DNA from: Squalus acanthias | Lineage: Eukaryota | DNA: 64,000 nucleotides | Assembly (NCBI GenBank): GCA_030390025.1 | Contig: JASTWF010000033.1 | Coordinates: forward strand, 374,001-438,000 | Reading direction: 5' to 3' | In this document: piece after piece, positions 935-45,839 of the stretch | How the letters are laid out: every line of letters begins with the position of its first letter | Numbering within the stretch: the first letter of the stretch is position 1 | Made by a program: the position numbers and the translations under genes | The notes under the pieces: model-generated | Seen by the model: only the letters and a program-made list of their open reading frames with translations | Databases searched by the model: none | What the model was told of the DNA's origin: nothing

Positions 935-3028
935 AGGATGTAATAGCTGAGCACTTGAAAAACAGTGACAGCATCGGACAAAGTCAACATGGATTTTCAA
1001 AAGGTAAATCGTGCTTGACTAATCTACTGGAATTTTTTGAGGATGTAACTGGGAAAATAGATAAGGGAGAACCAGTAAATGTGGTGTATTTGGACTTTCA
1101 AAAGGCTTTCGATAAGCTCCCGCATAAGAGATTAGCGTGTAAATTTAAGGCACATGGGATTGGGGGCAAGGTATTGACTTGGATAGAGAACTGGTTGGTG
1201 GACAGAAAGCAAAGAGTAGGAATGAATGGGTATTTTTCAGAGTGGCAAGCAGTGACTAGTGGGGTACTGCAGGGATCGGTCCTTGGACCCCAGCTATTCA
1301 CAATATACATTAATGATCTAGATAAGGGAACTAAATGTAACGGCCCAAAAATTAGTGTTGCTACGCGAGAGTACGCACTGTGCACTCTCGCGTATTCTGT
1401 CTCCAATTGCCGGTTTTCTGCATGCACTGCGCATGCGCTGAAAACCGGCACTTGGTGAATTCAAAAGGGGGCGGTTCCTAAGTGAACCGTGTGCGCGCTA
1501 CAGGCTGCGCGCACGCAGTGCACTTAGTGCTTTGAACGCGCAGGTAAGTATGGAAGATTTTACACAAAAAGAAAGGAGGTGTAAGACCCTCTTTTAACAA
1601 GGTAAGTAGTTAATTAAGTATTATTTTGAATTTTTTTTAACAGGTATATCTTTTTTAGAGACTTTAAAGACAGTTAAGTTTATTTTTATAACTTTTTAAA
1701 AGATTTTAATTTTTTTCAAAAATTTAATTTTTTGTTTAAAATGGTTAATTTATTTAACTCTACTTATTTTATTAATGTGATGTTTTTTTTATTTAATTGA
1801 GGTTTAGCTGTTCTTTTGGGGGGTATAGATTCATAGCTTTCACAGCACTTATGTGAAAGCTATGAATGAAAGATGGTGTGCTGCCATTGGCTCTAACAAG
1901 GTCACGTGATGCCACAGCTCTCACGAATTAACTGCGCCTGTGGGATACGGAAGCACTGCCCAGCTGCTGTCCAGGACATCAAGTTCGTGCGAGCTGGGAC
2001 TGAAAAAGCCAGCGCGCAGTGAGAGATCGCGGGGAAGCCTTACCCTCGCACGAAGGCTCCCTCACTAATTTTTGGTCCAATATCTCCAAGTTTGCAGATG
2101 ACACAAAGCTGGGTGGGAGTGTGTGCTGCGACGAGGATACCGAGAAACTCCAGGCTGATTTGGACAGGTTGGGTGACTGGGCTGAAGCGTGGCAGATGCA
2201 ATATAACGTGGATAAATGCGAGGTTATCCACTTTCGTGTCAAAAACGAAAGGCAGACTATTATCTGAATGGCAATAGATTGGAGAAGTGGAAGTGCAACG
2301 AGACCTGGGTGTCCTTGTGCACCAGTCGCTGAAGGTAAGCATGCAGGTGCAGCAGGCGGTGAAGAAGGCAAATGGTATGTTGGCCTTCATAGCGAAAGTG
2401 TTTCAGTATAGGAACGGGGATGTCCTGCTGCAGTTGTACAGGGCCTTGGTGAGACCACACCTTGAGTATTGTGTGCAGTATTGATCGCCTTATCTGAGGA
2501 AGGATGTTCTTGCCATGGGGGGAGTTCAGCGAAGATTCACAAGGCTGATACCTGGGATGGCAGGAATGACATATGAGGAGAGATTGTGTCGATTGGGCTT
2601 ATACTCGCTGGAGTATAGAAGAATGAGAGGGGATCTCATCGAAACATACAACATTCTGACAGGTCTGGAAAAACTAGATGCACGAAGAATGTTCCCGATG
2701 GTCGTAGAGTCCAGAATCAGGGGTCATAATCTAAGGGTAAGGGGTAAGCCATTTAGGACAGAAATGAGGAATAATTTCTTCACCCAGAGAGTGGTGAACC
2801 TGTGGAATTCTCTACCACAGAAGGTAGTTGAGGCCAAGTCATTAAATATATTCAAGAATGATTTAGATATATTTCTTAAAGCTAAAGGTATCAAGGGATA
2901 TGGGGAGAAGGCAGGTACGGGGTACTGAGTTTGGATGATCAGCCATGATCTCATCGAATGGCGGAGCAGGCTCGAGGGGCCGAATGGCCTACTTCTGCTC
3001 CTATCTTCTATGTTTCTATGTTTCTATG
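935..3028 (+). mobile_element. 5'-truncated CR1 LINE (RT region and 3' UTR) inserted in the minisatellite, interrupted by a MITE
   Basis: Motifs [34 protein letters not shown] and RPHLEYC; ends in a (TTCTATGT)n tail; contains frameshifts and stops. Confidence 0.93.
1342..2078. mobile_element. Non-autonomous DNA transposon (MITE), probably PIF/Harbinger-type
   Basis: 16-bp TIRs GGCCCAAAAATTAGTG (1342-1357) and CACTAATTTTTGGTCC (2063-2078), one mismatch. Flanked by AAC/AAT (imperfect 3-bp TSD). Removing it restores CR1 'GTKCN-ISKFADD'. Confidence 0.8.
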
Positions 3029-3345
3029 AGGGATAGGATCTCAATAGAGTGATAGGATCTCTATAGAGTGATAGGATATCAATAGATTGATAAGATATCA
3101 ATAGAGTGAAATTATCTCAATAGAGTGATAGGATCTCAAAAGATTGATAGGATCTCACTAGAGTGATAGGATCTCTATAGAGTGATAGGATATCAATAGA
3201 TTGACAGGATATCAATAGAGTTATAGGATCTCAAAAGAGAGATAGGATAACAATAGAGTGATAGGATCTCAATAGAGTGAAAGGATCTCGATAGAATGAT
3301 AAGATATCATTAGAGCGGTAGGATCTCAATAGGTTATCAATATAA
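3029..3345. repeat. 19-bp minisatellite, continuation (further remnants at ~4045-4225)
   Basis: Same GATAGGATCTCAATAGAGT unit. Confidence 0.9.
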
Positions 3346-3351
3346 TGACCT

Positions 3352-4033
3352 TCTCTCTTTCTTAGGCAGTCCCTCGGAACCGAGGAGGACCTGCTTCCAC
3401 ATTAAAAATGAGTTTGCAGATGACTGATCATTCCAATGCGGGACCTACAGTCTCTGCCACAGGTGGGGCAGACGGTGGTTGAAGGGGCGGGTGGGTGGGG
3501 TGCTTGGGTTGACGTGCGCTCCTTGTGCTGCCTGTGCTTGGCTTCCGCTTGCTCCCGGCGAAGTGACTCGAGGTGTTTGGCGCCTTCCTGGATGCTTCTC
3601 CTCCACTTTGTGCGGCCTTGGGCCAGGGATTCCCAGCTGTCGGTGAGGACGTTACACTTTTTCAAGGAGGCTTTGAGGGTGTCCTTGGAGCGTTTCCTCT
3701 GCCCACCTGGGGCTCTCTTGCCTTGTCGGAGATCCAGGTAGAGCGCTTGTTTTGGGAGTCTCGTATCGGGCATTCGGACAATGTGTCTGTCCATCGGAGC
3801 TGATCGAGCGTGGTCAAAGCTTCGATGCTGGGGATGTTGGCCTGAGCAAGAACACTGACATTGGTGCGCCTATCCTGCAAATGAATTTGCAGGATCTTGC
3901 GGAGGCAGCGTTGGTAGTACCTGTCCAGTGCTTTGAGGTGCCTGCTGTACATGGTCCATGTCTCTGTGGCATACAGGAGGGCGGGTATCACTGCTGCTCT
4001 GTAGACCATGAGCTTAGTGCCGGGTCTGAGGTC
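3352..4033 (-). mobile_element. RTE-clade LINE 3' fragment
   Basis: LLYATETW, RMPDTRLPKQ..GKRAPGGQRKR and a C-terminal CPTCGRDCRSRIG..SH zinc finger, typical of RTE ORF2 ends. Confidence 0.8.
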
Positions 4034-4226: not shown

Positions 4227-5389
4227 TGTAGACTTCGCAAAATCCCCCAGAAACTCGAACAGAGCCCTGAAGGGAGTGATTTTTGGACTTTTCATACAAG
4301 CTTGGGATGATGGGGCCTAAGTGAAGTGATTTGATGTAAAAACCTAAATATCAGGGTGGAAATACCTGAGAAATCTGATTTTTTAAATCTTATTGTTGGG
4401 AGAGACATTTTTTCACAGACACAAGCTGCGAGGGGCGTGGCCGGTCAGTGAACAGATCAAGCTGTCTGGGAACTGTTTGAGACAATGCAAAACTCACAAA
4501 CACATTCAAATATGGATTCCCAGGGGCAAACAAGATGTTGGAAATCTGAAAACGATTCAATGACAATATAACTTCGATCACACAGTTTCATAGCCATTAT
4601 CCCATCAAAAAAACAATCAACCAGGTATCCAGAGAACAGATTTAAAAGCCCGCCAACAGAAGGACAATAGGGTGAAGATTTGGCGCGTAGATAAGGCCGT
4701 GTTTTAAATCGGAAAACGATTAACACTAATCAAAAACCATCGGAACTGGCAAGCCCACCAAAAACTAGATAATTGGACTAAGCAAGAGTCATTTACAATC
4801 AAAAAGGAATTCGTTTTAGTAAGGGGTATTTGGGCGTGAAAAAGTAACAGTATTATTTGAGATCCTGTGCCATAATTTCTCTCTCTTTCAGACTGACTGA
4901 CGACGCGAACACAGCTCTCTCCCTGCTCCAGCAAAACCTACCACAAGCCACGAGGAAGAAGGCCAGAAGACCAGCACGCAAGAAGAAACCAGAGCGACTG
5001 CCTCAGTGACCATCAGACACCTCGCAGCAACAAGGGCCTTACGGAGTCCTTTTAAACAAAAGACTCTAATATCCTGTTAAGGATTCGTTGGTGAGCATTA
5101 TCCCTGATCTCCTGAAACCAAAAACCTAGCTAGATAGTGGAATCTTTGGGAGGGATAAGGTTTTGTTTGATATATTGTCATTTCCCTCGCTTGTACCGTG
5201 TGTTCCCCGAATCTTTGTTTAAGTAATAAGTTTGTTTCAATTTGTTACCTTTTTCTTTTAATAAAGTAAATGTCTTTCATCAGAACGTGTTTACTGCAAT
5301 TTTGTTCACAACCCCTAAATAAGCCCAAAATCTAGGAACAGGAGGGGTGTTGCAGCGATTCGAACTGCTCACTTAAGATACCCCTTACA
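4227..5389 (+). repeat. 5' LTR (1163 bp)
   Basis: TGTAGACTTCGCAAAATCCCCC...GATACCCCTTACA; homologous to 11261-12493; AATAAA near 5260. Confidence 0.9.
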
Positions 5390-5411: not shown

Positions 5412-5533
5412 ATTGGCGAAAGGGTTGTGAAGCAGTAAATGCTGGTTTTGAGCAGAGAACAAAAATGTAAGAGAGGATGTCATCCTATGTATATTAAAAA
5501 GTAAATTTCACCAAGAATTGGGTCCTCAGGCTG

Positions 5534-7342
5534 TTGCATGCTGAACGTCCTATGGACGCTGCAGCTGCATGGACGGAGAGCAAGGAATACAATAAGTCTG
5601 TGGAGAAAGCCATATGGTTGGTCTGCTCCCAGAAACAAATGCAGCTTATGGGGAAGCGCATTCAGGCTCTCACAGAAGAGCTAAATGAAGAAAGCCAACT
5701 GTCCCGTGCCAGAGCTATAGCAGGGGATAGGTTGTTAGCAGAGCTCGGCACAAAAGATCAGGAACAGTCACAGATGCTGGAGGAACACCGTGCCAGTAAG
5801 GGATACCTCCAGTGTAAGGCCACCGAGGACAAAAGTAGTGAACTGGCATTGCGGGAAGAGAACACCCGCCTTGCCAATCAATTAAGGGAGCTCACAGAGA
5901 AGTTAAACGATGTTCAGGCAGCCTATAGAGTAGCCAGTACAAGGGAATTTGAGGTAGGGGACCACGGCCCCTGTCAGAAGCAGATTGAGAGTCTGAAACT
6001 TTCTCTGTCCAAGGCAAAAGGCATGCTGTGCCTGATAAGCCCGGGTGCGGACCTGGCAGACCTGGAAGAGCAGGGGGAGACTGTTCGACCACCACCTGTG
6101 GCGCCAAGGAGAAGCTTGGTTAGGCATCAAGAGGTGCAGACAATCTCTGAGGTTGACAGGGAGTGCACACCAGCACCTGTGGCGCCGAGTTTTGACTCGG
6201 TCCGGCAGCAGGGAGAGGGGGGCGAACCGATGCAGGAGAAGTCGGAGCCAGGGCCAATGTGCACAGCACGACAGCAAAATTTCGGCCCGCCCGCCGGTGG
6301 TGGAGGTCAGGGACCCCTTCAAAGTCAATTCTTGGCTCCCCACGGTACACAACAGCTTAGGGCTATGGTAAGCCACCTGAGTAAACTTACCCAAAAGGAA
6401 GACCCCTCAGTCCACTTTATGGACCAATCAGCAGCCAATAACGATTGTGACGATGCCGAAATGGCAAAATTGCTGCTGTTCCCTTTCGATGGCAAATTGT
6501 ACCAGTCACTCTCTACTGAGAGCAAGAGAGGACAGACCGGGTATGCTGCCGTAATGGAGGAAGTATTAGAGACCATGGGAATAAATGAGGGAAGTCCTTT
6601 CTCCCGGGTGGAGAAAACAGTGCAGCTCGCAGGGGAGACCCCACAGGCTTTCGCAGACAGGCTGTGGCCGGTGTACAGGGGTGCTTGTAATGGGGCTCTC
6701 GACAGGGCTAACCTTAACAGGGACGAGCTGGCCCACTGGCTCCGTAGCCTTGTGGCAATCAGCTTGCCACGAGTCAAAGCCAAGGCTGAGCTTTGGTTTA
6801 ACTCAAGAGATCCCCGGGTCACCGAGGAGGCAGTGGTCAGGCAACTGACCCTAGCCTACCGGAACGGTAGGGGAGCTGAAGACACCCCACCGAAAGGGAA
6901 GGTGCATGAGATAAAGCCCAGTCAGGATAAGAAGGAGTGGCACCAGGAAGGTGGTAAACCTTCCGACACGAAGCGTAGCTGCTTCGGGTGCGGGAAGACT
7001 GGGCATTGGAGAAAGGACTGTAGGAATCCCTGGAATGATAGCCTAGCAAATAAGTCCCCAACTCCTGCCCCAAAAGTAGAGGCACCGACCTCTTCCCCCA
7101 CACTGGACACAATAGTAGCGGCCATCAGAGTCCTATTTGTTGCCCCAGGGAAGGTAGCTACTGGTGCATTGATCCCATCTGCCCCCCCCCCCCCCGTAAC
7201 GCAGACCTATGACTGGAACCAGCGTAGCCTGTCTACCTGTGTTCCCTGGGATACGATGTTGAGAAGGGGGTGGAGAAAGTGCAGGGGAGATGTTTGGTGG
7301 ACACCGGAGCTGCCAGCACGGTGGTCCATTCAGAAGACCTGA
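5534..7342 (+). CDS. gag: Gag-like polyprotein (N-terminal coiled coil, capsid-like region, CCHC knuckle); start and end probably disrupted
   Basis: 602-aa ORF with MHR-like Q..GETPQAFADRL and CFGCGKTGHWRKDC. The start codon is TTG. A poly-C run at ~7182-7195 probably shifts the natural end. Confidence 0.85.
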   Translation: MHAERPMDAAAAWTESKEYNKSVEKAIWLVCSQKQMQLMGKRIQALTEELNEESQLSRARAIAGDRLLAELGTKDQEQSQMLEEHRASKGYLQCKATEDKSSELALREENTRLANQLRELTEKLNDVQAAYRVASTREFEVGDHGPCQKQIESLKLSLSKAKGMLCLISPGADLADLEEQGETVRPPPVAPRRSLVRHQEVQTISEVDRECTPAPVAPSFDSVRQQGEGGEPMQEKSEPGPMCTARQQNFGPPAGGGGQGPLQSQFLAPHGTQQLRAMVSHLSKLTQKEDPSVHFMDQSAANNDCDDAEMAKLLLFPFDGKLYQSLSTESKRGQTGYAAVMEEVLETMGINEGSPFSRVEKTVQLAGETPQAFADRLWPVYRGACNGALDRANLNRDELAHWLRSLVAISLPRVKAKAELWFNSRDPRVTEEAVVRQLTLAYRNGRGAEDTPPKGKVHEIKPSQDKKEWHQEGGKPSDTKRSCFGCGKTGHWRKDCRNPWNDSLANKSPTPAPKVEAPTSSPTLDTIVAAIRVLFVAPGKVATGALIPSAPPPPVTQTYDWNQRSLSTCVPWDTMLRRGWRKCRGDVWWTPELPARWSIQKT

Positions 7343-7740
7343 CCAATTCACCCAGGTTTAACGGGGTCCCCTACAGTTTAATGGGAAATAAAAGGGAACG
7401 AGCAGGCTGGGGCAATGTCCAAACCTTTGGACACAGATTTAGGATCCCTCCATACCACGTGGGAGGATAACCAAAATGCCGACAAGTTGGCCAAGCAGGG
7501 GGTCAGGGAAGGAGAGTGATGGGATCCCTATAAAGCAGGTCCGGTAGCTGCAATCCGGGACAAGGGAGGCACACAGGGGATAGCTTTGCCCCCGGACTTA
7601 AAGCAGGTCCAAGCCCAGAATCCCGTCTTTAAGGCCGTCCTGGTAAAGAGAGAGAATGGGGAGTCCCTAGAAGTTCCGTTCAGGGCAGAGAACGAGATTT
7701 TTAAACAGGTTCACTGGCAAGCAGCCAGTAACCTGGGGAG
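7213..7740 (+). pseudogene. pol: pol remnants: aspartic protease, RNase H tail, possible integrase N-terminus; RT deleted
   Basis: CLVDTGAASTVV (7270 frame) and DNQNADKLAKQG (~7466-7501). No RT or integrase core motifs. Confidence 0.7.
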
Positions 7741-7841
7741 CCAGTACCAGAAAAATCGGCTGCTGTTAGAACCCCAGAGAGTCCACGGGTGGGAGATTGA
7801 CCAGTGTAAACTGTTTAAACCTAGAAAGGGAACAGCCGAAA

Positions 7842-8423
7842 ATGGTGGACTGCCCCCAAGTTAGAAATCCTCAGCCAGCCGCGGCTGTGGTAGACGCACA
7901 AGCTGCAGCGGGAGGGACAGTGTGCTGTCTCACAGGAGAGGTCACTCCACCGATTATGTGGGACTCAAGCACACCGCCAGTGTCCAGAGCCCTAAGAATG
8001 TCTCCCCGCACACCACAGCAAAGGCTACTGTGGCCACAGGTGTATCTGTTTAGAGGGTCCCACCCAAAGAGGGTTACAACTAGAAAAAGGGCGCCCAAGT
8101 GCAGGGTGCGTTCTAAAGTTGGGGATTCCCAGCCTACAGCCTCCAACATTGAGGGTTTCACAGGAGAAGTAGTACTGGAAGAAGAGAGATAGAAGGGTCC
8201 CCCGCCCGCAGCCTCAGGCTGGGAGGAGCCCACAGATATGAACGAGGGCGCTGCAGCCACACAAAAGGGGGTAGTGTGCTGCAGCACAGGACGCAGCTGG
8301 GATGTTAAGATACCCCCAGCGGTTTTGAGGAAGGCCTTCTGGGTCCGGCGATACAGGCCGCACTACACCCAGGTGTACAAGCCATCCAGAGGCCACATAC
8401 GGCAGAGACTAAACAGGATTTAA
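7842..8423 (+). pseudogene. Orphan accessory ORF between pol and env, broken by one in-frame TAG (8190-8192)
   Basis: ORFs 7797-8192 and 8238-8423 are in the same frame and the linker between them is open. Confidence 0.4.
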
Positions 8424-8590
8424 CCTGGCCGTACGGAGATGGGCGGCAAATGTACAGAATTTTCGGTTTTAAGTAATTGCAGTTTTGGTAGTTATGGGTT
8501 ATCAAAGTTTAGTTATTTGTGGAGTTTTTAAGTTTAAGGGCTTGAATAATTATCCAGCCAGATAACCTTTCTGGGACATGGATATAAGTT

Positions 8591-10880
8591 TTGTGTGTGC
8601 CCCGACAGAAAGGACTTCGGAATGACAAGGTTTCTGCTCCTGCTCCCCTGGTAGGGGTGAGCATCGGTGACCGAGGTGACGTAGAGGACTCCCACATCTA
8701 TGGGTATTCAGGAGTGAGAGCACCAGTCGTCACCGCAGTGGGTGGCGAGCGGGGAGTGGAGGAGCTCGCCATCTACTTCCACGAGGGAAGGTGGCCAGGA
8801 TGGTTGGGGTCCAACTCTACTAAATACTCCAACCAACCCGGGTTCACGTACGGGGAGGCCTCCCTCCCATGCCCCAGAATACAGGTCGTTGCCACAAGGG
8901 TCAGTGTCACCGAGGGGAAGCGTGTGTGCCTTACCTGTAAGGGACGAATTCCCTTGAATAGGTGGTGGTGGCACAGGAAGCTGAGCAGGGACGCAGGGGA
9001 CCATACAGCCGACTGGGAAAGATTAGGGAACGACACCTACCGGACAATCACAGGGACCCAAGGAGGAGTGAGTGTTTGTTGGGATAAGTGGTGGGAGTCG
9101 GAACAGGGAGTCTATGTTTGTATGTGGGGATCAGAGGAAGCCTGCCCCACAGGGGTATCCATCATCTTCTCCAGCCAATGGCAAGATGCCGGGGAGGGGA
9201 TAGGGTGGGATTCTAGCCTGCATGGGTGTGTGGTCCCACACATTCCGGTCCCAGTTAATGCCACTGAACTCGTGGCACACACCCGAAAGCCCCAACCCAC
9301 GACCCAGGTACCGAAAACCCTGGAAGAAAAGTGCCCTACCACCACCAAATGAGCAGGGAATGGGTTAGTCCTAGTACCAACCGAAAAGGTACTATACCAG
9401 GGGGTACACTATGCAGTAACTCCAGTAATATTAAACCTTACCGAGGTATACTTACCTGAGTGGTGTCCTAAGGAGACGGAGCAGCTGTACCAGGCCCTGC
9501 TAAAGGAAATGTTTAGGAAATTTTACGAATTAGATTTTGCCAATATAGACAAAGTAGAGCTATACAGAATACACCCTGAGAACCCTATGGGCACGGGTAG
9601 AAAAAGAAGGGAAGCCTGGAATGATGTCTTCACAGCCTATAGTACAGGGTCCTCTGTAATAAATAGCCTGGATGACATGGAATTACAGACACAGATAAAT
9701 GGTTTAAAAACCCAGTTAAGAAAGATCCTGAAGGATGGGAACACAGTGGTAGGCTCAGAGCTACATGAGGACCAAGCTATGACGGTTCATTTAAAGGAAA
9801 TTATTGCAGAATTGGAAAGGCATGCCAAAACAGTAAATGCACTCATACGGGAGGATAGGAATGCATCGGATCAGGCTGCACAGAATGAGGTGTGTGTGCT
9901 GTACGGGGCATGGTTGCTGGGCGAGGGCCGTAGCAACCTGGTGGATTTAAAGCAAGGTTTAGTCCCCTCCTGGATCAGCAACAAGCACCTTGCAGCCCTC
10001 CACCCGTTTAGTAATTCGCTGAGCACATGCCAATTTCATCTAGCCTCTGAAGCCTACCAAGTCCCAATAGATTGTGGGCGTTCAAATCACACTATCATGG
10101 GGATAGTAGTGAGAATGCCGGTCATGAGTGGGACAGCCCGACCCGTACCGGTATACAGGGTGGAGAACATTGGAGTCATTAAAGGGGGTGCACACATCCG
10201 TTTTACAGCGGTCCTACCTTATGTCATAAAGTGGGAGCACGCCATGACAGGTATTGACCTAGACGGGTGCCGGAGCCGGGGTTCACACATCATACTGTGT
10301 CCCCAGCACTTGAACGCCTATTCGAAACCACAATGCGGGTTCAGAGCTGCTGGCGCACGACCTATCAATTGTACCATGGAGGTGATGGCACACGGCCATG
10401 TTTCCCCACAGGTAGCATATATAGGGGGTGGGACATATTGTGTCACCACGGGTGCGTCCCACTACCAGCATGGACACTTCTGGTGTCCGCTAAGTGACAG
10501 CAGTTTCTGTTTTAAACGAGAGGCAGAAGTTCAAGTGGCCCAGGAACAGATTGTCCCCATTCCTGAACCCTCCACTGTTCACCTCACTGTAACAGAAAAC
10601 ATCACCAACCTGCAAAAGTATGTGACTTACTTTGGATATAAAATTCCCCTTCTACCCGAACATCTTACCAACCTACTTAAAGCTGTAGAGATTTCACAAA
10701 AACTTTCCTACACCCTGGAACAGAAAACAGTTGAATTAGGGGCAGAGATTTTGGATATAGTAGTTCCAACCTGCTGGGATATTTTCGAGAATATAGAGGT
10801 GCCTTCCTGGATCAGGATGGCTTCCCATCTTTTGGTGGTCTGCTAGCTCGGGATATTTCTCTACCTGCTGTGAACAAGAT
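8591..10880 (+). pseudogene. env: env: Ig-like domain + class I F-type fusion glycoprotein; in-frame stops at 9350-9352 and 10844-10846
   Basis: ORFs 8591-9352 and 9509-10846 share a frame with an open linker. Features: VSVTEGKRVCLTC..W..GVYVC Ig motif, RKRR furin site, heptad repeat, Cys-rich region, TM-like end. Confidence 0.8.
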
Positions 10881-11249
10881 GAAGGGGAAGGGACGGGGAG
10901 CTCCGCTCCAGACACGATGGGACTTGGGAAGTGCATCAAAATAAAGGCTATGGCCAGGGATGGAACGAAACTTGAATTTTTGTCTTTTAATTAAAAAAAT
11001 TTGTATGTGTGTTGTGTCATTTTTATGATGTGTATGATGTGTTTTTTCCAAGCTGTGCAGGGGTGACCGTCCCTCTCGGTGCTTGGATGTGAAATAAAGA
11101 TTGATTCTTACCTGTATGTCCCTGAAACACCACTTTCAAAAGGGGAATGTATGTTTGGGTTTTTAGTTTAGGTAATACAGGGGAAGGTTGGTTTTCGGGG
11201 ATCGGAATTTTTGCTCACCTGTTAATTATACTAATTCAGTTTTAGTATC

Positions 11250-11260
11250 AAAGTGGGGGA
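11250..11260 (+). promoter_or_regulatory. Polypurine tract
   Basis: AAAGTGGGGGA abutting the TG of the 3' LTR. Confidence 0.8.
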
Positions 11261-12493
11261 TGTAGGCTTCGCAAAATCCCCCAGAAACTCGAACAGAGCC
11301 CGAAAGGGAGTAATTTTGGTCTTTTCATACAAACTTGGGATGATGGGTCCTAAGTGAAGTGATTTGATGTAAAAACCTAAAGATCAGGGAAGAAAAAACC
11401 TGAGGAAACTGACTTTTTGAATCTTACTGTTGGGAGAGACACCTTTCACAGACACAAGCTGCGAGGGGCGTGGCCAGGCAGTGAACAAATCAAGCTGTCT
11501 GGGAATTGTTTACACTACAAATCCTACCAAGGTGCAAGAGACAAAGCAAAAACTCACAAACACATTCAAATATGAATCCCCAGGGGCAAACAAGATGCTG
11601 GAAAACTAAAAACGATTCCTGACGATAAAACTTCCAGCACACAGTTTCATAGCCATCATCCCATCAAAAAATACTAATCAACCAGGTAGCCACTGAACAG
11701 ATTTAAAAGCCCGCCAAAAGATATAGGACAATAGGGGGAGATTTGGCGCGTATATAAGTCTGTGTTTAAATCGGAAAACGATCAAGACATGTTTAACACT
11801 GAGCAAAAGCCATCGGAACTGGCAAGCCCGCCAAAACTAGACAATGGACGAAGCAAGGTTCATTTGCAACCAAAAGGAATCCGTTTTAGTAAGGGTTTTT
11901 TGGGCGCAAAAAAGAAACAGTGTAATTTGAAAGTCTGTGCCATAATTTCTCTCTCTTTCGGACTGCCTGACCACGCGGACACAGCTCTCTCCCTGCTCCA
12001 GCAAAACCTACCACAAGCCACGAGGAAGAAGGCCAGAAAAAAGACCAGCACGCAAGAAGAAACCAGAGCGACTGCCTCAGTGACCATCGGACACCTCGCA
12101 GCAACAAGGGCCTTACAGAGTCTTTTAAACAAAAGACTCTAAAATCCTGTCAAGGATTCGTTGGTGAGCATTATCCCTGATCTCCTGAAAATAAAAACCT
12201 AGCAAGATAGTGGGATCTTTGGGAGGGATAAGGTTTTGTTTGATTTTTTGTCATTTCCCTCGCTTGTAACGTGTGTTCCCCGAATCTGTGTTTAATAATA
12301 AGTGTGTTTCAAGTTTGTTACCTTTTTTCTTTTAACAAAGTAAAATTCTTTCATCAGAAGCTGTCGTTTACTGCAATTTTGTTCACAACCCCTAAATAAG
12401 TCCAAAGTCTAGGAACCGGAGGGGTGTGGGAGCGATTCGAACCGCTCACTGTGTCAGAAAGCGAAGGCTGACCCCATTAAGATACCCCTTGCA
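11261..12493 (+). repeat. 3' LTR (1233 bp)
   Basis: TGTAGGCTTCGCAAAATCCCCC...GATACCCCTTGCA; differs from the 5' LTR by many substitutions and several indels. Confidence 0.9.
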
Positions 12494-20233: not shown

Positions 20234-21135
20234 TTATTTTATAATCTTAGAAAGTACAGTGAAGGGATATTTCACCCCATTCTTCAGCTCCTCTCTGAAC
20301 TTACTCTGGGTCACGGCATAAATAAAAGTGTTTGTGCAGCAACTCAGGAGCTGGAGCATAAACCCAAGTTCTTGTACAATGTTTAACATTGCACCACTAT
20401 CCAACCAGTACATTAAAACAATTCTAGAATACATCGTGGCCACCAGGAGCACAGCCCACAGAAGGATAAAATTCCCCGAGATCACAAAAAGTACAGTAAT
20501 TGATTTTCTTCTGTTTTTAGACTCTGGGTCACTGGGACTCTCCCCGCTGACCCGGTCCCGAAGTCTCTTGCGAATTCTGATGGTCACTAAAATGTGTCTG
20601 ACGGTTAAAACATTGAGCATCAGAATCAGAATAAATGGTCCACACGGGGTCAAAATATAATGTAGCAATTCAATTGCTGCCCATACTGGTGAAAGCATAA
20701 CGCTGAAGGTCATACCGCAGAACCAGGGAAGTCTCATTAGCATATAGTTGCCTGTAAGCATAAAGTACCAGAAAATGTTCTTCACACAGAACAACACAGT
20801 CATTGTTCCAATAACCACCGCCGCCGATTTCTCGGTGCAATATTTGTTTTTTAGCTTCTGGCAACAAATGGCCACAAATCGATCAAAGGTGAAAGAGACG
20901 GTGAACCAGACAGAACAGTCTGTGGCTGCATAAAGTAGGACTGCGTGGATATTACACACGGGAATGTCGTTAAGAAAGCGAAACTTTGTATTATAAACAA
21001 CGGGAATGTGCCTCAGTATCAGATCGATGATAACGACCAGTAAATCCGCCGCTGCCATGGCCAACAGGTACCGAGTGACACATTTGGAGAGACCACACTT
21101 TCCCCGAGACAGGGTCACAATCGTCACTAAGTTAA
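20234..21135 (-). CDS. GPR139-like class A orphan GPCR, exon 2
   Basis: TM1-TM7 with YLLAMAAADLLV, FTFDRFVAIC and CCTNTFIY. Acceptor cccttccttacAG precedes 21135. Open to the stop. Confidence 0.9.
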
Positions 21136-21509
21136 CTGTAAGGAAGGGGGGGAAAGGGAAAATACACATCAGGATTGGAGCTGAAATATCAGTGTCGTGG
21201 ATCAATGGATGTCATTTACTGAGAGCTCACAACATCCCGTGATGGAATCCATCATGACAGAACTTCATGTTAGAGCTAAGACTTCAAGTCAAGTGTCAGT
21301 AATGATTTGTGAATTCAAGGACTGATCAAATTGGTTAAATAAACATGAAAATAACACGGTTATATTTATTCAGAAATGTCCAACAATAGAATGTGGTTTG
21401 CCCTAATGAACAAACAGTAAACACACTGACTGGTGCCAACAAAACCTGATGGTGCTGACAGAAGGTCCCACGGTCAAATCTGGGCCTAGTCAGTTACAAT
21501 TGGAATCAA

Positions 21510-41495: not shown

Positions 41496-41949
41496 GAGAC
41501 GAGACCGGAAGCGGACCAGGTGGGAAGCACCCAGGTGAACAGCATTTAAGGAGGGTGGTGGCTTAAACCCGAGTTCCTACAGAGTAGGAACCCCCACCCG
41601 CCCTCCTCCTCTAACCTACTAGTCTTTTAGCAGTCTAAAAACAGAGGTCACAAATTTTTTGGTCTCAGTTTCTTTTCAGCAGGGCAGGAACCGGGAGGAG
41701 CGGGAAGTCGGCGTAGGACCAAGGGGACACAAGACCGGGAAGTCAGCGAAAGACCAGGGAGGTAAGACTAACTGGTAAGTACTTTCCTCAAACCTTCCTA
41801 GAAAGTAAAACTAAAACTAGTGGGATTTGGTTAGTTTAAAAAGGAATAAGAGGAGTACAGTATACATTGGTCTAAGTAAGCTTCGGGAAAACAAAAGTCA
41901 ATAAATAAACTAAAACTAGAAAATTAAAAAGTAATATAAGGGTTAAGTC

Positions 41950-42897
41950 ATGGCAGTAGAGCTCGGACCTGTGTCATGCTCCTCCTGTAACATGTGGGAA
42001 ATCAGGGACGCTTCCTGTGTCCCTGACAACCATGTGTGCGGGAAGTGTGTCCAGCTGCAGCTCATGTGGGACCGCATGACGGCCCTTGAGCTGCGGATGG
42101 ACTCACTTTGGAGCATCCACGATTCTGAGAGGGTTGTGGATAACACATTTAGTGAGTTGGTCACACCGCAGGTTAAGGCCAGCGTAGATAGTACATGGGT
42201 GACCAAAAGGCAGAGCAAGGGCAGGAAGGTAGTGCAGAAATCCCCTGGGGTTGTCTCCCTTAGCAACAGGTTCACCGCCTTAGGTGCTGTTGTCGGGGGG
42301 GATGACTCATCGGGGGAAGGCACCAGCAGCCAGGCTCATGGCACCATGACTGGCTCTGTTGCAAAGAAGGGAGGGAAAAAGAGTGGCAGGGCTATAGTAA
42401 TAGGGGATTCGATTGTAAGGGGAATAGATAGGGGTTTCTGTGGTCGCGACCGAGACTCCAGGATGGTATGTTGCCTCCCTGGTGCAAGGGTCAAGGATGT
42501 CTCGGCGCGGGTGCAGAACATTCTGGAGGGGGAGGGGGAACAGCCAGTTGTCGTGATACATGTTGGTACCAACGACGTAGCTAAAAAAAGGGAAGAGGTC
42601 CTACAAGTAGAATTTAGGGAGTTAGGAGCCAAGCTAAAAAGTAGGACCTCGAAGGTAGTAATCTCTGGATTACTACCAGTGCCACGTGCTAGTAAGAGTA
42701 CAGAGAACAGGATAGTTAGGCTAAATACGTGGCTTGAGCAGTGGTGTAAGAGGGAGGGTTTTAAATTTTTGAGGCATTGGAACCAGTTTTGTGGTAGGTG
42801 TGACCTATACAAAAGGGACGGTCTACACCTGTGCAAAGATGGAACTGATGTTCTCGGGGTAATTTTTGATAAAGCAGTTCGGGAGCATTTAAACTAG
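41950..42897 (+). CDS. CR1 ORF1p (Cys zinc finger, coiled coil, SGNH esterase-like domain)
   Basis: CSSC..CGKC; IGDSIVR, VIHVGTND and DGLHL blocks; 315 aa open. Confidence 0.93.
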   Translation: MAVELGPVSCSSCNMWEIRDASCVPDNHVCGKCVQLQLMWDRMTALELRMDSLWSIHDSERVVDNTFSELVTPQVKASVDSTWVTKRQSKGRKVVQKSPGVVSLSNRFTALGAVVGGDDSSGEGTSSQAHGTMTGSVAKKGGKKSGRAIVIGDSIVRGIDRGFCGRDRDSRMVCCLPGARVKDVSARVQNILEGEGEQPVVVIHVGTNDVAKKREEVLQVEFRELGAKLKSRTSKVVISGLLPVPRASKSTENRIVRLNTWLEQWCKREGFKFLRHWNQFCGRCDLYKRDGLHLCKDGTDVLGVIFDKAVREHLN

Positions 42898-42971
42898 TAT
42901 GGCAGGGGGCTAGAAACCTATGTAGTGAAATAGAGGAAAGTGAAAGGCAGACAGAAATAAATGGTAAAAGA

Positions 42972-45839
42972 GTGAGGAACAAAAAACAAAGGGCCAAACT
43001 AATTCATAAAAAATGTGAGCATAAAAAAAGCCTGAGGGTTTTATACCTTAATGCGAGAAGCATCAGGAACAAGGTAGATGAATTAGCTGTGGAAATAGAG
43101 GTTAATAATTATGATCTAATTGGGATTACGGAAACATGGTTGCAGGGTGAGCAGGGCTGGGAGCTTAACATACAGGGGTATTCAGTATTTAGGAAGGATC
43201 GACAAAAAAGAAAGGGAGGAGGGGTAGCATTGCTGGTAAAAGAAGGGATAAATGCAATTGAAAGGAAGGATATTAACTCAGTTAATACAGAATCTATATG
43301 GGTGGAGCTAAGAAATAGCGAGGGGCGAAAAACATTAATAGGAGTGGTATATAGGCCTCCAAATAGTAAAATAGAGGTTGGGGAGGGCATCACGAGGGAA
43401 ATTAGAGAAGCGTGCAATAAGAGCACAGCTGTCATCATAGGTGACTTTAACTTACATATAGATTGGAATAGCCTAATCAGTAAAAATAATGAGGAGGAGG
43501 AATTCCTTGAGTGTTTAAGGGATGGTTATCTGGATCAATATGTCGAGGAACCAACTCGGGAACAGGCTATATTGGACTGGGTACTGTGCAATGAGAAGGG
43601 ACTAATTAGTAATCTTGTTGTACGGGGACCCTTGGGTCAGAGCGATCATAACATGATCGATTTCTCACTCGAAATGGAGAGCGAAGAAATTGACTCAGAT
43701 ACTAAGGTCCTGAATTTAAACAAGGGGAATTATGATGCCATTAGACGGGAACTGAGTAGGTCTGATTGGACAACGTTCCTGGGAGGACTGGAGGTAGATA
43801 AACAATGGCAAGCATTTAAAGATAGAATGACAAAATTGCAAAAATTGTTTATACCAATCTGGCATAAAAGGAAATCTAAAAAGGTGACTCAACCGTGGAT
43901 AACAGGGGAAATTAGAGACAGCATAAAATCCAAAGATAGGGCGTATAAAATAGCCAAAAAAAGCGCCAGAGCGGAAGATTGGGAACAGTTTAAGATAGAG
44001 CAAAGGAGGACAAAGGGCTTAATCAAGAGGGGCAAAATAGCTTACGAAAGCAAGCTGGCGGAAAATATAAAAACTAACTCCAAAAGCTTTTATAAGTATA
44101 TCAAGAGGAAAAGACTGGTGAAAACCAAAGTTGGCCCATTGCAGTCAGATACGGGGGAATATATAACGGGAAATAAGGAAATGGCAGACCAACTAAATGC
44201 ATACTTTGGGTCAGTCTTTACGAAGGAAGACACAAAAAACCTCCCTGGGATATCGGGAAAAATAGGGACATTTGCAAAGGAGGAACTGACGCAAGTCAAT
44301 ATCTCTAAGGATATGGTGTTAAGGAAGCTAAAGGGATTGAAGGCGGACAAATCCCCAGGGCCTGATAACATGCATCCTAGGGTGCTGAAGGAGGTGGCCC
44401 TAGAGATAGCGGATGCACTAAGTATGATTTTTCAGAATTCATTAGACTCGGGAACAGTGCCCATGGATTGGAGGGTAGCTAACGTTACCCCACTATTCAA
44501 AAAGGGGGGTAGGGAAAAAGCAGGTAATTACAGACCTGTAAGCCTTACATCAGTTGTGGGCAAAATGCTGGAGTCCATCATTAAGGATGAAATAGTGGAG
44601 CACTTAGCAAATGGGGACAGGATAGGACAGAGTCAACATGGATTTACAAAGGGTAAATCGTGCTTGACTAATCTATTGGAATTTTTTGAGGGAGTAACTG
44701 GTAAAATAGATGGGGGAGAGCCAGTAGATGTGGTGTACCTGGACTTCCAAAAGGCCTTCGATAAGGTCCCACATAAAAGATTAGCAGGGAAAATTGAAGC
44801 TCATGGGATAAAGGGGAAAGTATTGACGTGGATAGAGAACTGGCTGTCAGATAGAAAACAGAGAGTTGGAATAAACGGCTCATTTTCTGAATGGCAGGCA
44901 GTAACAAGTGGGGTACCACAGGGATCTGTCCTGGGTCCCCAGCTGTTCACAATTTACATTAATGACCTGGATCAGGGAGTCGGATGCAGCATTTCCAAAT
45001 TTGCAGACGACACTAAACTAGGAGGGGGGGTGGGCTCAGAGGAGGAGACCAGGAAGCTCCAGAGCGATTTGGACAGACTGGGTGATTGGGCGGATAAATG
45101 GCAGATGCACTATAATGTGGACAAGTGCGAAGTTATCCACCTTGGGTGCAGGAACGGGAGGGCAAATTATTATTTAAATGGCAATAAATTGGGAGAGGGG
45201 GAAGTACAGAGAGACCTGGGTGTTCTTGTACACCAGTCACTGAAGGCGAGCATGCAGGTGCAACAGGCGATCAAGAAGGCAAACGGTATGCTGGCCTTCA
45301 TAGCAAAAGGGTTGGAATACAGGAACAGGGATACCTTGCTGCAGCTGTACAGGGCACTGGTGAGACCACACCTCGAGTACTGTGTACAGTTTTGGTCGCC
45401 TCATCTGAGGAAAGATGTTCTTGCCATGGAGGGGGTGCAGCGGCGATTCACCAGGCTGATACCAGGAATGGCGGGATTGACCTATGAGGAGAGACTATGT
45501 AGTTTAGGGATGTACACACTGGAGTTTAGAAGATTGAGAGGGGACCTCATAGAAGTGTATAAAATTCTGACAGGTCTAGACAGACTAGATGCAGAAGGAA
45601 TGTTTCCCTTGGCGGGTGAGAACAGAACTAGAGGACATAATTTAAGGATAAGGGCTAAACCATTTAGGACAGAAATGAGGGGGAATTTCTTCACTCAGAG
45701 GGTGGTGAACCTGTGGAACTCATTGCCACAGAGGGCAGTGTACGCCAGCTCATTAAATATATTTAAGAGGGAATTAGATGTATTTCTACAGGCAAAAGGG
45801 GTTAAGGGTTACGGAGAGAAGGCGGGGACGGGATACTGA
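42972..45839 (+). CDS. CR1 ORF2p (APE endonuclease + reverse transcriptase); frame open from 42873, no in-frame ATG before the endonuclease
   Basis: [38 protein letters not shown] and KFADD; 955 aa uninterrupted. Confidence 0.97.
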   Translation: MRNKKQRAKLIHKKCEHKKSLRVLYLNARSIRNKVDELAVEIEVNNYDLIGITETWLQGEQGWELNIQGYSVFRKDRQKRKGGGVALLVKEGINAIERKDINSVNTESIWVELRNSEGRKTLIGVVYRPPNSKIEVGEGITREIREACNKSTAVIIGDFNLHIDWNSLISKNNEEEEFLECLRDGYLDQYVEEPTREQAILDWVLCNEKGLISNLVVRGPLGQSDHNMIDFSLEMESEEIDSDTKVLNLNKGNYDAIRRELSRSDWTTFLGGLEVDKQWQAFKDRMTKLQKLFIPIWHKRKSKKVTQPWITGEIRDSIKSKDRAYKIAKKSARAEDWEQFKIEQRRTKGLIKRGKIAYESKLAENIKTNSKSFYKYIKRKRLVKTKVGPLQSDTGEYITGNKEMADQLNAYFGSVFTKEDTKNLPGISGKIGTFAKEELTQVNISKDMVLRKLKGLKADKSPGPDNMHPRVLKEVALEIADALSMIFQNSLDSGTVPMDWRVANVTPLFKKGGREKAGNYRPVSLTSVVGKMLESIIKDEIVEHLANGDRIGQSQHGFTKGKSCLTNLLEFFEGVTGKIDGGEPVDVVYLDFQKAFDKVPHKRLAGKIEAHGIKGKVLTWIENWLSDRKQRVGINGSFSEWQAVTSGVPQGSVLGPQLFTIYINDLDQGVGCSISKFADDTKLGGGVGSEEETRKLQSDLDRLGDWADKWQMHYNVDKCEVIHLGCRNGRANYYLNGNKLGEGEVQRDLGVLVHQSLKASMQVQQAIKKANGMLAFIAKGLEYRNRDTLLQLYRALVRPHLEYCVQFWSPHLRKDVLAMEGVQRRFTRLIPGMAGLTYEERLCSLGMYTLEFRRLRGDLIEVYKILTGLDRLDAEGMFPLAGENRTRGHNLRIRAKPFRTEMRGNFFTQRVVNLWNSLPQRAVYASSLNIFKRELDVFLQAKGVKGYGEKAGTGY

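Follow-up and report, generated by a model that had tools for sequence, protein, structure and literature searches.

What kind of envelope does a retrovirus carry when a single reading frame appears to begin as an immunoglobulin (Ig) domain and to end as the fusion protein (F) of a paramyxovirus? The question is raised by a locus of Squalus acanthias that lies in a stretch of 64,000 nucleotides (NCBI GenBank assembly GCA_030390025.1, contig JASTWF010000033.1, positions 374,001 to 438,000 of the forward strand), which is the whole of the DNA analysed here and is referred to below as the window; coordinates without further label are positions in it. An original prediction, made from the letters and their open reading frames (ORFs), had proposed a retroviral env in which an Ig-like domain is fused to an F-type fusion protein. 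The reading at which we have arrived, with a probability of roughly 0.8, is that window positions 8622-10975 hold an env pseudogene of a pol-deleted endogenous retrovirus (ERV) belonging to a large family, and that the open form of this gene encodes an Ig-like domain together with a complete F-type protein. F-type envelope proteins (Env) of retroviruses are already known, and it is the placement of an Ig-like domain before a complete F on a retroviral Env that appears to be new. The open form is predicted to be a type I membrane glycoprotein of 784 residues in which a signal peptide is followed by an N-terminal region with one Ig-like domain, a glycosylated stalk rich in proline and threonine, and a complete F-type class I fusion protein, in that order.

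The env gene and its open form

The two stop-to-stop ORFs of the locus (8588-9352, 254 aa, and 9353-10846, 497 aa, in the standard code) share one phase and are separated only by the in-frame TGA at codon 244 (Table 1), which bears out the proposal of one frame split by a single TGA. Every motif that had been quoted for this frame, from the Ig signature and the Pro/Thr stalk to the basic site and the hydrophobic end, is present in the window (VSVTEGKRVCLTC, RWWW, GVYVC, a Pro/Thr-rich stretch, RKRR at 9599-9610, and a hydrophobic C-terminal end). When the window is read against a 784-codon open copy of the gene, the span proposed at first, 8591-10880, has to be corrected at both ends, and the TGA, which stands, is joined by further lesions: a length difference of one base among the signal-peptide codons puts the ATG of the window copy out of phase with the rest of env, and stops at 10844, 10871 and 10880 fall within the membrane anchor or just past it.

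In the product of the open form a clear signal peptide can be recognised, RQRR occurs once, at residues 327-330, hydropathy peaks at residues 733-751, and the tail is 30 residues long. A motif check on the open copy P0007 found no CX6CC in env, in agreement with the claim that gamma-type motifs are lacking; CXXC occurs in the same copy as two words only, CLTC in the Ig-like segment and CTKC in the tail. The frame is not a chance one, because all scored matches in the genome are highly similar to it in protein and because the ratio of nonsynonymous to synonymous substitution rates (dN/dS) among copies, given below, is lower than in shifted-frame controls. The matches were obtained by searching the C-terminal half of env against the window's own 3.7-Gb genome; the best 86 of 11,250 first-look candidates were scored, and all 86 are 88-100% identical in protein, the family thus consisting of at least 86 very similar copies. 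As a separate matter, contigs of three public runs, from two studies, depart from the window in the upstream direction at 8773, with 93 unlike letters, and this could mark either a variant N-terminus or a junction. These contigs are of uncertain kind, and none of the datasets listed as containing the sequence is recorded as RNA.

A predicted F-type fusion protein

The C-terminal part was modelled with AlphaFold2 (AF2) from residues 222-740 (519 aa) of the open copy L010 and an alignment of 33 sequences, giving a mean predicted local distance difference test score (pLDDT) of 72 and a predicted template-modelling score (pTM) of 0.56. A Foldseek search of the PDB with this model gave 241 matches at E <=0.001 and, among the matches listed, all are F proteins of paramyxoviruses or pneumoviruses, the best being the postfusion F of respiratory syncytial virus (E 2.5e-10) and the F of human parainfluenza virus 3 (hPIV3; E 3.0e-10). 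With VIA-align the best 50 entries are all F proteins and 151 chains reach Z >=8, the alignment to hPIV3 F having a Z of 12.6 and a root-mean-square deviation of 6.5 Å over 360 aligned residues. The model comparison that had been suggested as a check on the F-type claim therefore speaks in its favour. The template-modelling scores are only 0.4-0.5, as one would expect given that the model is of a monomer with a long central helix and the solved structures are pre- and postfusion trimers.

Followed along the chain, the model and the sequence together predict a three-domain F fold with the helices of heptad repeats A and B (HRA and HRB), a multibasic site before the fusion peptide, and a C-terminal membrane anchor. 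The pLDDT falls below 50 at model residues 96-132, as is expected of a loop and fusion peptide. At the cleavage junction, [RK]x[KR]R can be read in seven of the ten relatives checked, and the other three have a dibasic pair only. Since the structural alignments begin at model residue 24, which corresponds to the opening residues of mature F2, this part amounts to a complete F, and the region that precedes it is an addition.

In BFVD the model is matched best by the glycoproteins of Mononegavirales from insects and fish and of viruses related to them, by baculovirus F (E 1e-10 to 1e-7) and by paramyxovirus F0; feline foamy virus gp130 is matched at E 3.4e-4. The model also matches the predicted Env of two epsilonretroviruses in that database, walleye epidermal hyperplasia virus 1 (E 9.3e-9) and walleye dermal sarcoma virus (E 1.2e-6), and to judge from these predicted structures epsilonretroviral Env may be F-like as well.

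An Ig-like domain ahead of F

The N-terminal part was compared by means of eight Ig-like segments, taken from the window, a skate, three other cartilaginous fish, two frogs and one more relative. Pfam recognises Ig_3 in six of the eight (best E 3.6e-4), V-set in one (E 0.0014) and I-set in one, and a profile built from all eight finds 642 PDB sequences at E up to 1, the best 60 of which are all of the Ig superfamily, with contactin-3 (E 9.2e-5), NCAM2 (E 9.5e-5) and VEGFR2 (E 3.6e-4) at the top. In the ESM Atlas the 104-residue segment scores 0.92-0.95 to I-set, ig and V-set clusters (recognition 2848), and all 10 family-bearing matches among its ten best are in one clan, that of Ig, although one in three shuffled proteins likewise reaches ten matches in a single clan. 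The N-terminal part taken whole (recognition 1871, scores 0.87-0.90) provides a lead only. The core pattern of an Ig domain is a Cys in strand B, a Trp about 10-14 residues later, and D/E-x-G-x-Y-x-C about 55-75 residues after the first Cys. In the window one reads CLTC, the Trp of RWWW 9-11 residues on, and E-Q-G-V-Y-V-C, with 60 residues between the Cys pair; the frog relative P0025 has 58 residues between them, and the pattern is present in shark and frog members alike. On the strength of these profiles and this pattern, the N-terminal domain probably has an Ig fold, as the original prediction had it.

Several results weigh against the reading as a whole, and they touch both halves of the protein as well as the element that carries it. 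As far as sequence is concerned, neither PF00523 (Fusion_gly) nor PF12259 (Baculo_F) is matched by the window half at E up to 0.1 or by the open copy at E up to 10; the best PF00523 score in a relative is E 0.036 (12.8 bits, cut-off 29.8) and the best Baculo_F score E 0.0011 (18.1 bits, cut-off 24.1). When the F part is searched as a family profile, PDB sequences yield no F protein, the weak matches being to the heptad repeat 2 and transmembrane region (HR2-TM) of a coronavirus spike (E 0.01) and to that of the Env of human endogenous retrovirus K (HERV-K; E 0.014), and a plain sequence search of each env half against the PDB gave nothing significant. Because the matches to F fail at this level, the F assignment rests on a predicted structure of middling confidence. 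For the Ig-like part, all of the Pfam matches score under the curated cut-off; the AF2 model of residues 17-260, made from a 9-row alignment and a copy that lacks the second Cys, has a pLDDT of 34.5 and is unusable; the profile of the whole N-terminal part has no match in the PDB; and the N-terminal segment of L038, a pol-linked sister lineage, has no Ig match at E up to 1. Lastly, no helper with the same long terminal repeats (LTRs), the same gag and a full pol was found among the candidates scored, which were only the best ones, so that the absence of a helper is not implied.

The points that concern the Ig-like part, together with a poor MAFFT alignment between the shark and frog N-terminal segments, would suit a reading in which the C-terminal part is F-type and the extension before it is some other fast-evolving domain, for receptor binding or shielding, whose Cys and Trp residues merely mimic those of an Ig domain. 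This we regard as unlikely, given the accord of independent segments on Ig_3, V-set and I-set, the uniformly Ig-superfamily nature of the best PDB matches, the Ig clan assignment in the Atlas, the automatic UniRef name of the Chiloscyllium relative ('Ig-like domain-containing protein'), and a Cys-Trp-Cys spacing that is held at 58-60 in shark and frog.

Relatives in sharks, a skate and frogs

An exhaustive phmmer search against 1.84 billion representatives gave 47 matches. Near full-length relatives, 20-32% identical, occur in the sharks Mustelus asterias and Chiloscyllium punctatum and in the frogs Pelodytes ibericus and Mantella aurantiaca, and shorter ones in Heterodontus francisci, Scyliorhinus torazame and Xenopus tropicalis; altogether, env relatives have been found in sharks, a skate and frogs. 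Because shark and frog relatives as distant as these have the same layout, an N-terminal domain followed by F is an old trait of the family, and the terms "captured" and "chimeric" that had been applied to the gene are not borne out in that form, no host donor gene having been identified.

It might still be held that the Ig-like domain was captured recently from a host gene of the Ig superfamily and that env is a young chimera, since the top domain matches named above are cellular adhesion molecules. Those matches are weak (E about 1e-4) and generic, however, and in the distant shark and frog relatives F is already preceded by an N-terminal domain of matching Cys/Trp pattern, so that any capture of an Ig domain would predate the split of the shark and frog lineages; a recent one seems to us quite improbable.

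The genome of S. acanthias also contains many further env lineages of this superfamily, which show 33-81% identity with the Chiloscyllium protein. One of these, L038, has an open env of 784 codons that, between the stalk's end and the anchor, shares 27% identity with the window family (E 5e-64). The sister provirus represented by L038 and L041 (contig C4) has a pol as well as this open env. The pol upstream of the L038 env comprises RVT_1, a tether-like RNase H domain, RNase H and the integrase core, carries the motifs LPQG..NSP and YVDDLLL, and has as its nearest public relatives a protein of Xenopus tropicalis (48% identity) and then one of Latimeria. Its likeness to foamy virus Pol was scored on that Xenopus relative of the sister lineage, to which the window family is linked by the 27% identity in env and by short scraps of pol. 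Against solved structures, the reverse transcriptase (RT) plus tether of the Xenopus Pol scores 214 bits with foamy virus, 177 with murine leukaemia virus (MLV), 146 with Ty3 and about 47-65 with human immunodeficiency virus; its integrase scores best with that of prototype foamy virus (122 bits).

Comparison with other F-type and Ig-bearing envelopes

The predicted fold of the window family and the order of its parts (F2, furin site, fusion peptide, HRA, domains I and II, HRB and transmembrane segment) are those of F in the Paramyxoviridae and Pneumoviridae. The family differs from them in having about 230 extra residues with the Ig-like domain before F2, in being encoded by a retrovirus, and in lacking a sequence match to PF00523. 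In paramyxoviruses, attachment is carried out by a protein separate from F.

Lokiretroviruses, whose RT forms the sister branch to all other retroviruses, are a further lineage with an F-type Env, and the gene might be thought to be simply a lokiretrovirus env, a member of the lineage described for its likeness to the F of Mononegavirales. Similarity to PF00523 is reported for lokiretrovirus Env, which comprises a signal peptide, RXKR site, fusion peptide, coiled coil and transmembrane segment (Wang and Han 2020, PMC7947760); like the product of the window family it is an F-type retroviral Env with a furin site, and F2 of Loki-Xtr opens with a similar GP..G.. word. Yet an N-terminal domain is missing from Loki-Xtr Env, a bare F about 590 residues long in which the signal peptide leads directly into F2 and RPKR lies near residue 110 (PMC7947760), whereas in the window family F2 starts at residue 245 and the cleavage site lies at 327, behind the Ig-like domain and stalk. 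The set of features by which lokiretrovirus Env is known, namely a signal peptide, F2, RXKR, F1 and similarity to PF00523, was not found complete in the window family. Hosts and pol differ too: the supplement of the same paper, in the parts examined, records no lokiretroviruses in three genomes of Orectolobiformes (Chondrichthyes) and has no presence mark for Callorhinchus milii, and its Pol motifs CPFGYANSP and YVDDILM contrast with LPQG..NSP and YVDDLLL in the sister pol linked to the window family, to which foamy virus is the nearest solved RT and integrase. Eight short words of the window family are absent from the part of the supplement examined, which is weak evidence. Taken together, these differences leave a lokiretrovirus env with little probability.

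In foamy viruses, Gag is without a Cys-His box and pol is not in frame with gag. The window family, with a CCHC knuckle in its gag and a shared frame for gag and pol, is not foamy-like in these respects. The likeness lies elsewhere, in an F-type fusion core and perhaps in the linked pol; foamy virus Env has a fusion core with F domains I-III, besides a leader peptide and a receptor-binding domain (RBD) with a fold of its own (Fernandez et al. 2024, PMC11468914). There are also foamy-like ERVs for which an env has been wanting: the Xenopus element XtrFLERV clusters with shark ones (CmiFLERV), with only pol detectable (Aiewsakun and Katzourakis 2017, PMC5512871), and a survey of 2023 found shark spuma-like ERVs without Env domains (PMC10699275). 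The same odd pairing of shark and frog hosts is seen here, and an undetectable env would fit an env that is unrecognisable by similarity; the match in host pattern is suggestive.

In design, a parallel is offered by the gamma-type Env of MLV and feline leukaemia virus, which has an N-terminal IgV-like RBD on the surface subunit (SU), then a proline-rich linker and then the fusion machinery (bioRxiv 10.1101/2024.03.17.585361); the logic of an N-terminal Ig-like domain, a Pro-rich linker and a fusion part is the same. The fusion parts differ, gamma-type Env having an immunosuppressive domain and CX6CC and the window family having a predicted F-type fold without CX6CC. The pairing of CX6CC in the transmembrane subunit (TM) with CXXC in the C-terminal part of SU, which defines gamma-type Env, was not found in the window family. 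An F-like envelope on a reverse-transcribing element is shared, finally, with the errantiviruses, invertebrate Ty3/gypsy elements with an F-type ENV, for which no intact homologous vertebrate ERVs were found (PMC13524379); the word 'immunoglobulin' does not occur in that paper. The literature that we found thus describes F-type Env in lokiretroviruses, foamy viruses and errantiviruses, and an IgV-like RBD on gamma-type Env. In the literature searched, which took in few supplements, an F-type retroviral Env bearing an Ig-like domain was nowhere described, in line with the original remark that this architecture is not known from earlier descriptions. The automatic UniRef name of the Chiloscyllium protein shows, all the same, that the domain has been picked up by a database pipeline.

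A provirus without reverse transcriptase

The window element is an LTR provirus of about 8.3 kb, as follows from the paired LTR repeats and the polypurine run that abuts the 3' repeat. Matches of its gag in the PDB are solely to retroviral nucleocapsid knuckles, at E 0.03 or weaker. The interval from gag to env is only 1.2 kb, and RT and the integrase core are missing from it. In better-kept copies this 1.2-kb remnant of pol is an open frame (402 aa in L033, 4504-5712) that runs from the start of protease to the last residues of RNase H and on to the C-terminal module of integrase, and in L033 gag and the remnant are in one frame. The protease part is matched by Pfam RVP at E 0.055 on a sister copy, and blastp of the remnant against Latimeria and Xenopus Pol gives 40% identity over protease (E 3e-10) and 45-49% over the integrase end.

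The loss of RT and of the integrase core is a trait of the family and not an accident of the window copy. Of thirty env loci fetched from the same genome for detailed reading, 26 have the same upstream DNA in common, as far as the locus extends; the best 150 of 3,895 candidate protease matches were scored, and all 150 lie in short open frames of 79-547 aa; and two other copies run collinear with the window over their whole length, LTRs included. The 547-aa frame was considered as a possible pol parent and rejected, its extra part being a repeat of the integrase end and not RT, and no parent bearing pol emerged when the scrap of protease and RNase H was compared with longer proteins in a word-based search. 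An open frame of at least 402 aa over the pol remnant is seen in about 21 of the 150 scored copies, and a long stretch of low complexity follows the protease, RNase H and integrase scraps.

Copies, selection and age

Five of the thirty loci (L010, L016, L017, L019 and L025) are fully open from ATG to stop over 784 codons; of the other 25, 18 are in frame with 1-4 scattered stops, six are frame-changed and one is truncated on the 5' side. The stop at codon 244 is found, among the 23 in-frame loci, only in the window copy itself (L001) and in L002 and L003, which are 98.3-98.5% identical to it in DNA and have other stops in common with it, and are accordingly taken to be duplicates of the same dead locus. 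The position is read through in gene models of the skate Rhinoraja longicauda and of Pristiophorus japonicus, and in a protein from a Logan assembly. Uninterrupted copies of Ig-like domain plus F, for which the original prediction had advised a search, therefore exist both at these five loci and in skate and shark gene models, and the outcome that would have told against it, a stop lying always between the two halves, did not occur.

Pairwise dN/dS was calculated by the method of Nei and Gojobori for 18 gap-free copies; the duplicates L002 and L003, three loci with length differences (L023, L026 and L030) and seven frameshifted or truncated loci were left out. Over the whole gene, dN/dS is 0.36, as compared with 0.88 and 1.12 in the shifted-frame controls. 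By parts, it is 0.29 in the Ig-like domain, 0.25 in the F2-like segment and 0.31 in F1, and highest, at 0.72, in the stalk. The env of this family is under purifying selection, and much of the divergence between copies must have arisen while env was functional. The usual fate of defective ERVs is the loss of env; here pol has been lost and env has been subject to purifying selection across the family.

Open frames and a dN/dS below 1 are also what a host gene co-opted from env, in the manner of a syncytin, would have. That the locus is such a gene is hardly credible, as the window copy is flanked by LTRs, stands behind gag and carries a frameshift and four in-frame stops; and the selection signal, in a family with at least 86 closely similar members, is what a replicating element would give.

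The window copy looks older than the others, in that its LTR pair is 87% identical and those of the copies compared are 98.2% (L010, with open env) and 97.4% (L033/L009, with one stop in env). Its internal DNA is nonetheless 95-96% identical to that of other copies, a figure that is hard to square in full with that of its LTRs. The low LTR identity may be due to faster decay of the LTRs or to LTRs of mixed origin.

Proposed mode of action and significance

If the reading of an Ig-like domain before a complete F is right, the precursor would be cut by furin into an SU-like subunit, consisting of the Ig-like domain and F2, and a TM-like subunit corresponding to F1, and the protein would act as a trimer. 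The Ig-like domain would bind a receptor on the cell and thereby trigger the refolding of F, so that a single protein may cover both of the tasks of paramyxovirus entry, attachment and F-driven fusion. Copies of the family would have spread with Pol supplied by a helper virus, the family itself being without RT and integrase core.

A broader proposal can be put forward tentatively, as a possibility on which we would not rely: that the Ig-F protein is the missing env of the shark and frog clade with foamy-like pol, that it represents a third F-type solution to retroviral entry, and that the window family is a helper-dependent satellite. If so, an Ig domain for receptor binding, joined in cis to an entire F protein, would take its place beside the bare F of lokiretroviruses and the RBD-bearing Env of foamy viruses, and the discarding of pol, with gag and env kept under purifying selection, would mean that the family spread by infection with its own envelope and not by intracellular retrotransposition.

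F-type fusion proteins are known in negative-strand RNA viruses, baculoviruses, errantiviruses, lokiretroviruses and foamy viruses, and how receptor binding is coupled to F is an open comparative question, for which an Ig-like domain with a complete F offers a compact single-chain example whose natural open copies allow structural study. The Ig-F env could also serve as a query in surveys of shark and amphibian ERVs, for which no detectable env was reported (PMC5512871, PMC10699275). The retention of env under selection after the loss of pol is unusual, and it bears on the way in which defective retroviruses spread in the germ line.

Features of the window

Table 1. Positions of the provirus and of the parts of its env gene in the window
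Feature	Position	Strand	Basis
5' LTR	4227..5389	+	blastn of the region against itself: 4227-5373 pairs with 11261-12450, 87% identity, 1200 columns
gag open frame, 614 aa, one CCHC zinc knuckle	5498..7342	+	Pfam zf-CCHC E 4.6e-4, 20.6 bits (cut-off 20.8); aligns with gag of another copy
pol remnant, in three frames	7213..8420	+	tblastn of the 402-aa open frame of another copy; protease start (DTGA), RNase H end, integrase C-terminal end
env gene	8622-10975 (ATG 8622-8624, natural stop 10973-10975)	+	reading of the window against the 784-codon open copy
env ATG and signal-peptide codons, frameshifted in the window copy	8622..8668	+	MTRFLLLL in frame 8562, remaining env in frame 8561/8591; a single frame in open copy L010
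Ig-like domain, env codons 83-186	8867..9178	+	Pfam Ig_3 E 0.0012, 19.7 bits (cut-off 30)
Pro/Thr-rich stalk, N-glycosylation sequon NAT at 9257	9179..9349	+	read from sequence
In-frame TGA, env codon 244	9350-9352	+	sole separator of the two ORFs
F2-like segment (strands, then helix)	9353..9598	+	model residues 24 on align with first residues of solved F chains; pLDDT 83-94 at 21-80
Furin-type cleavage site RKRR	9599..9610	+	read from sequence
Fusion-peptide-like segment rich in small residues	9611..9658	+	read from sequence; model pLDDT <50 at residues 96-132
Heptad repeat A, long helices	9659..9952	+	model helices 126-153 and 159-223; aligned with central helix of postfusion F
Beta-rich, Cys-rich head (F domains I and II)	10049..10552	+	model strands 256-423, pLDDT mostly 81-96; within the 23-431 range of most VIA rows
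Heptad repeat B helix	10655..10756	+	model helix 458-491
Membrane anchor region	10817..10885	+	stops 10844, 10871 and 10880 inside, the last two just beyond the hydrophobic run
Short cytoplasmic tail and natural stop codon	10886..10975	+	alignment with 784-codon open copy
Polypurine tract aaagtggggga	11250..11260	+	read from sequence; adjoins 3' LTR
3' LTR	11261..12490	+	same blastn pairing; both LTRs end '...ccccttaca/gca' past a 27-nt length difference

Outside the provirus, the window contains other repeats and coding traces. Two arrays of a 19-bp tandem repeat, at 530-1009 and 2965-3407, flank an RT fragment of another retroelement at 916-1458 (RVT_1 E 1.2e-16). On the minus strand, positions 20237-21211 hold an open frame of 325 aa that matches the rhodopsin family of seven-transmembrane receptors (E 4e-17). 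At 41947-45839 there is a long interspersed nuclear element (LINE) with a GDSL-lipase-like ORF1 and an ORF2 of 988 aa that contains endonuclease and RT.

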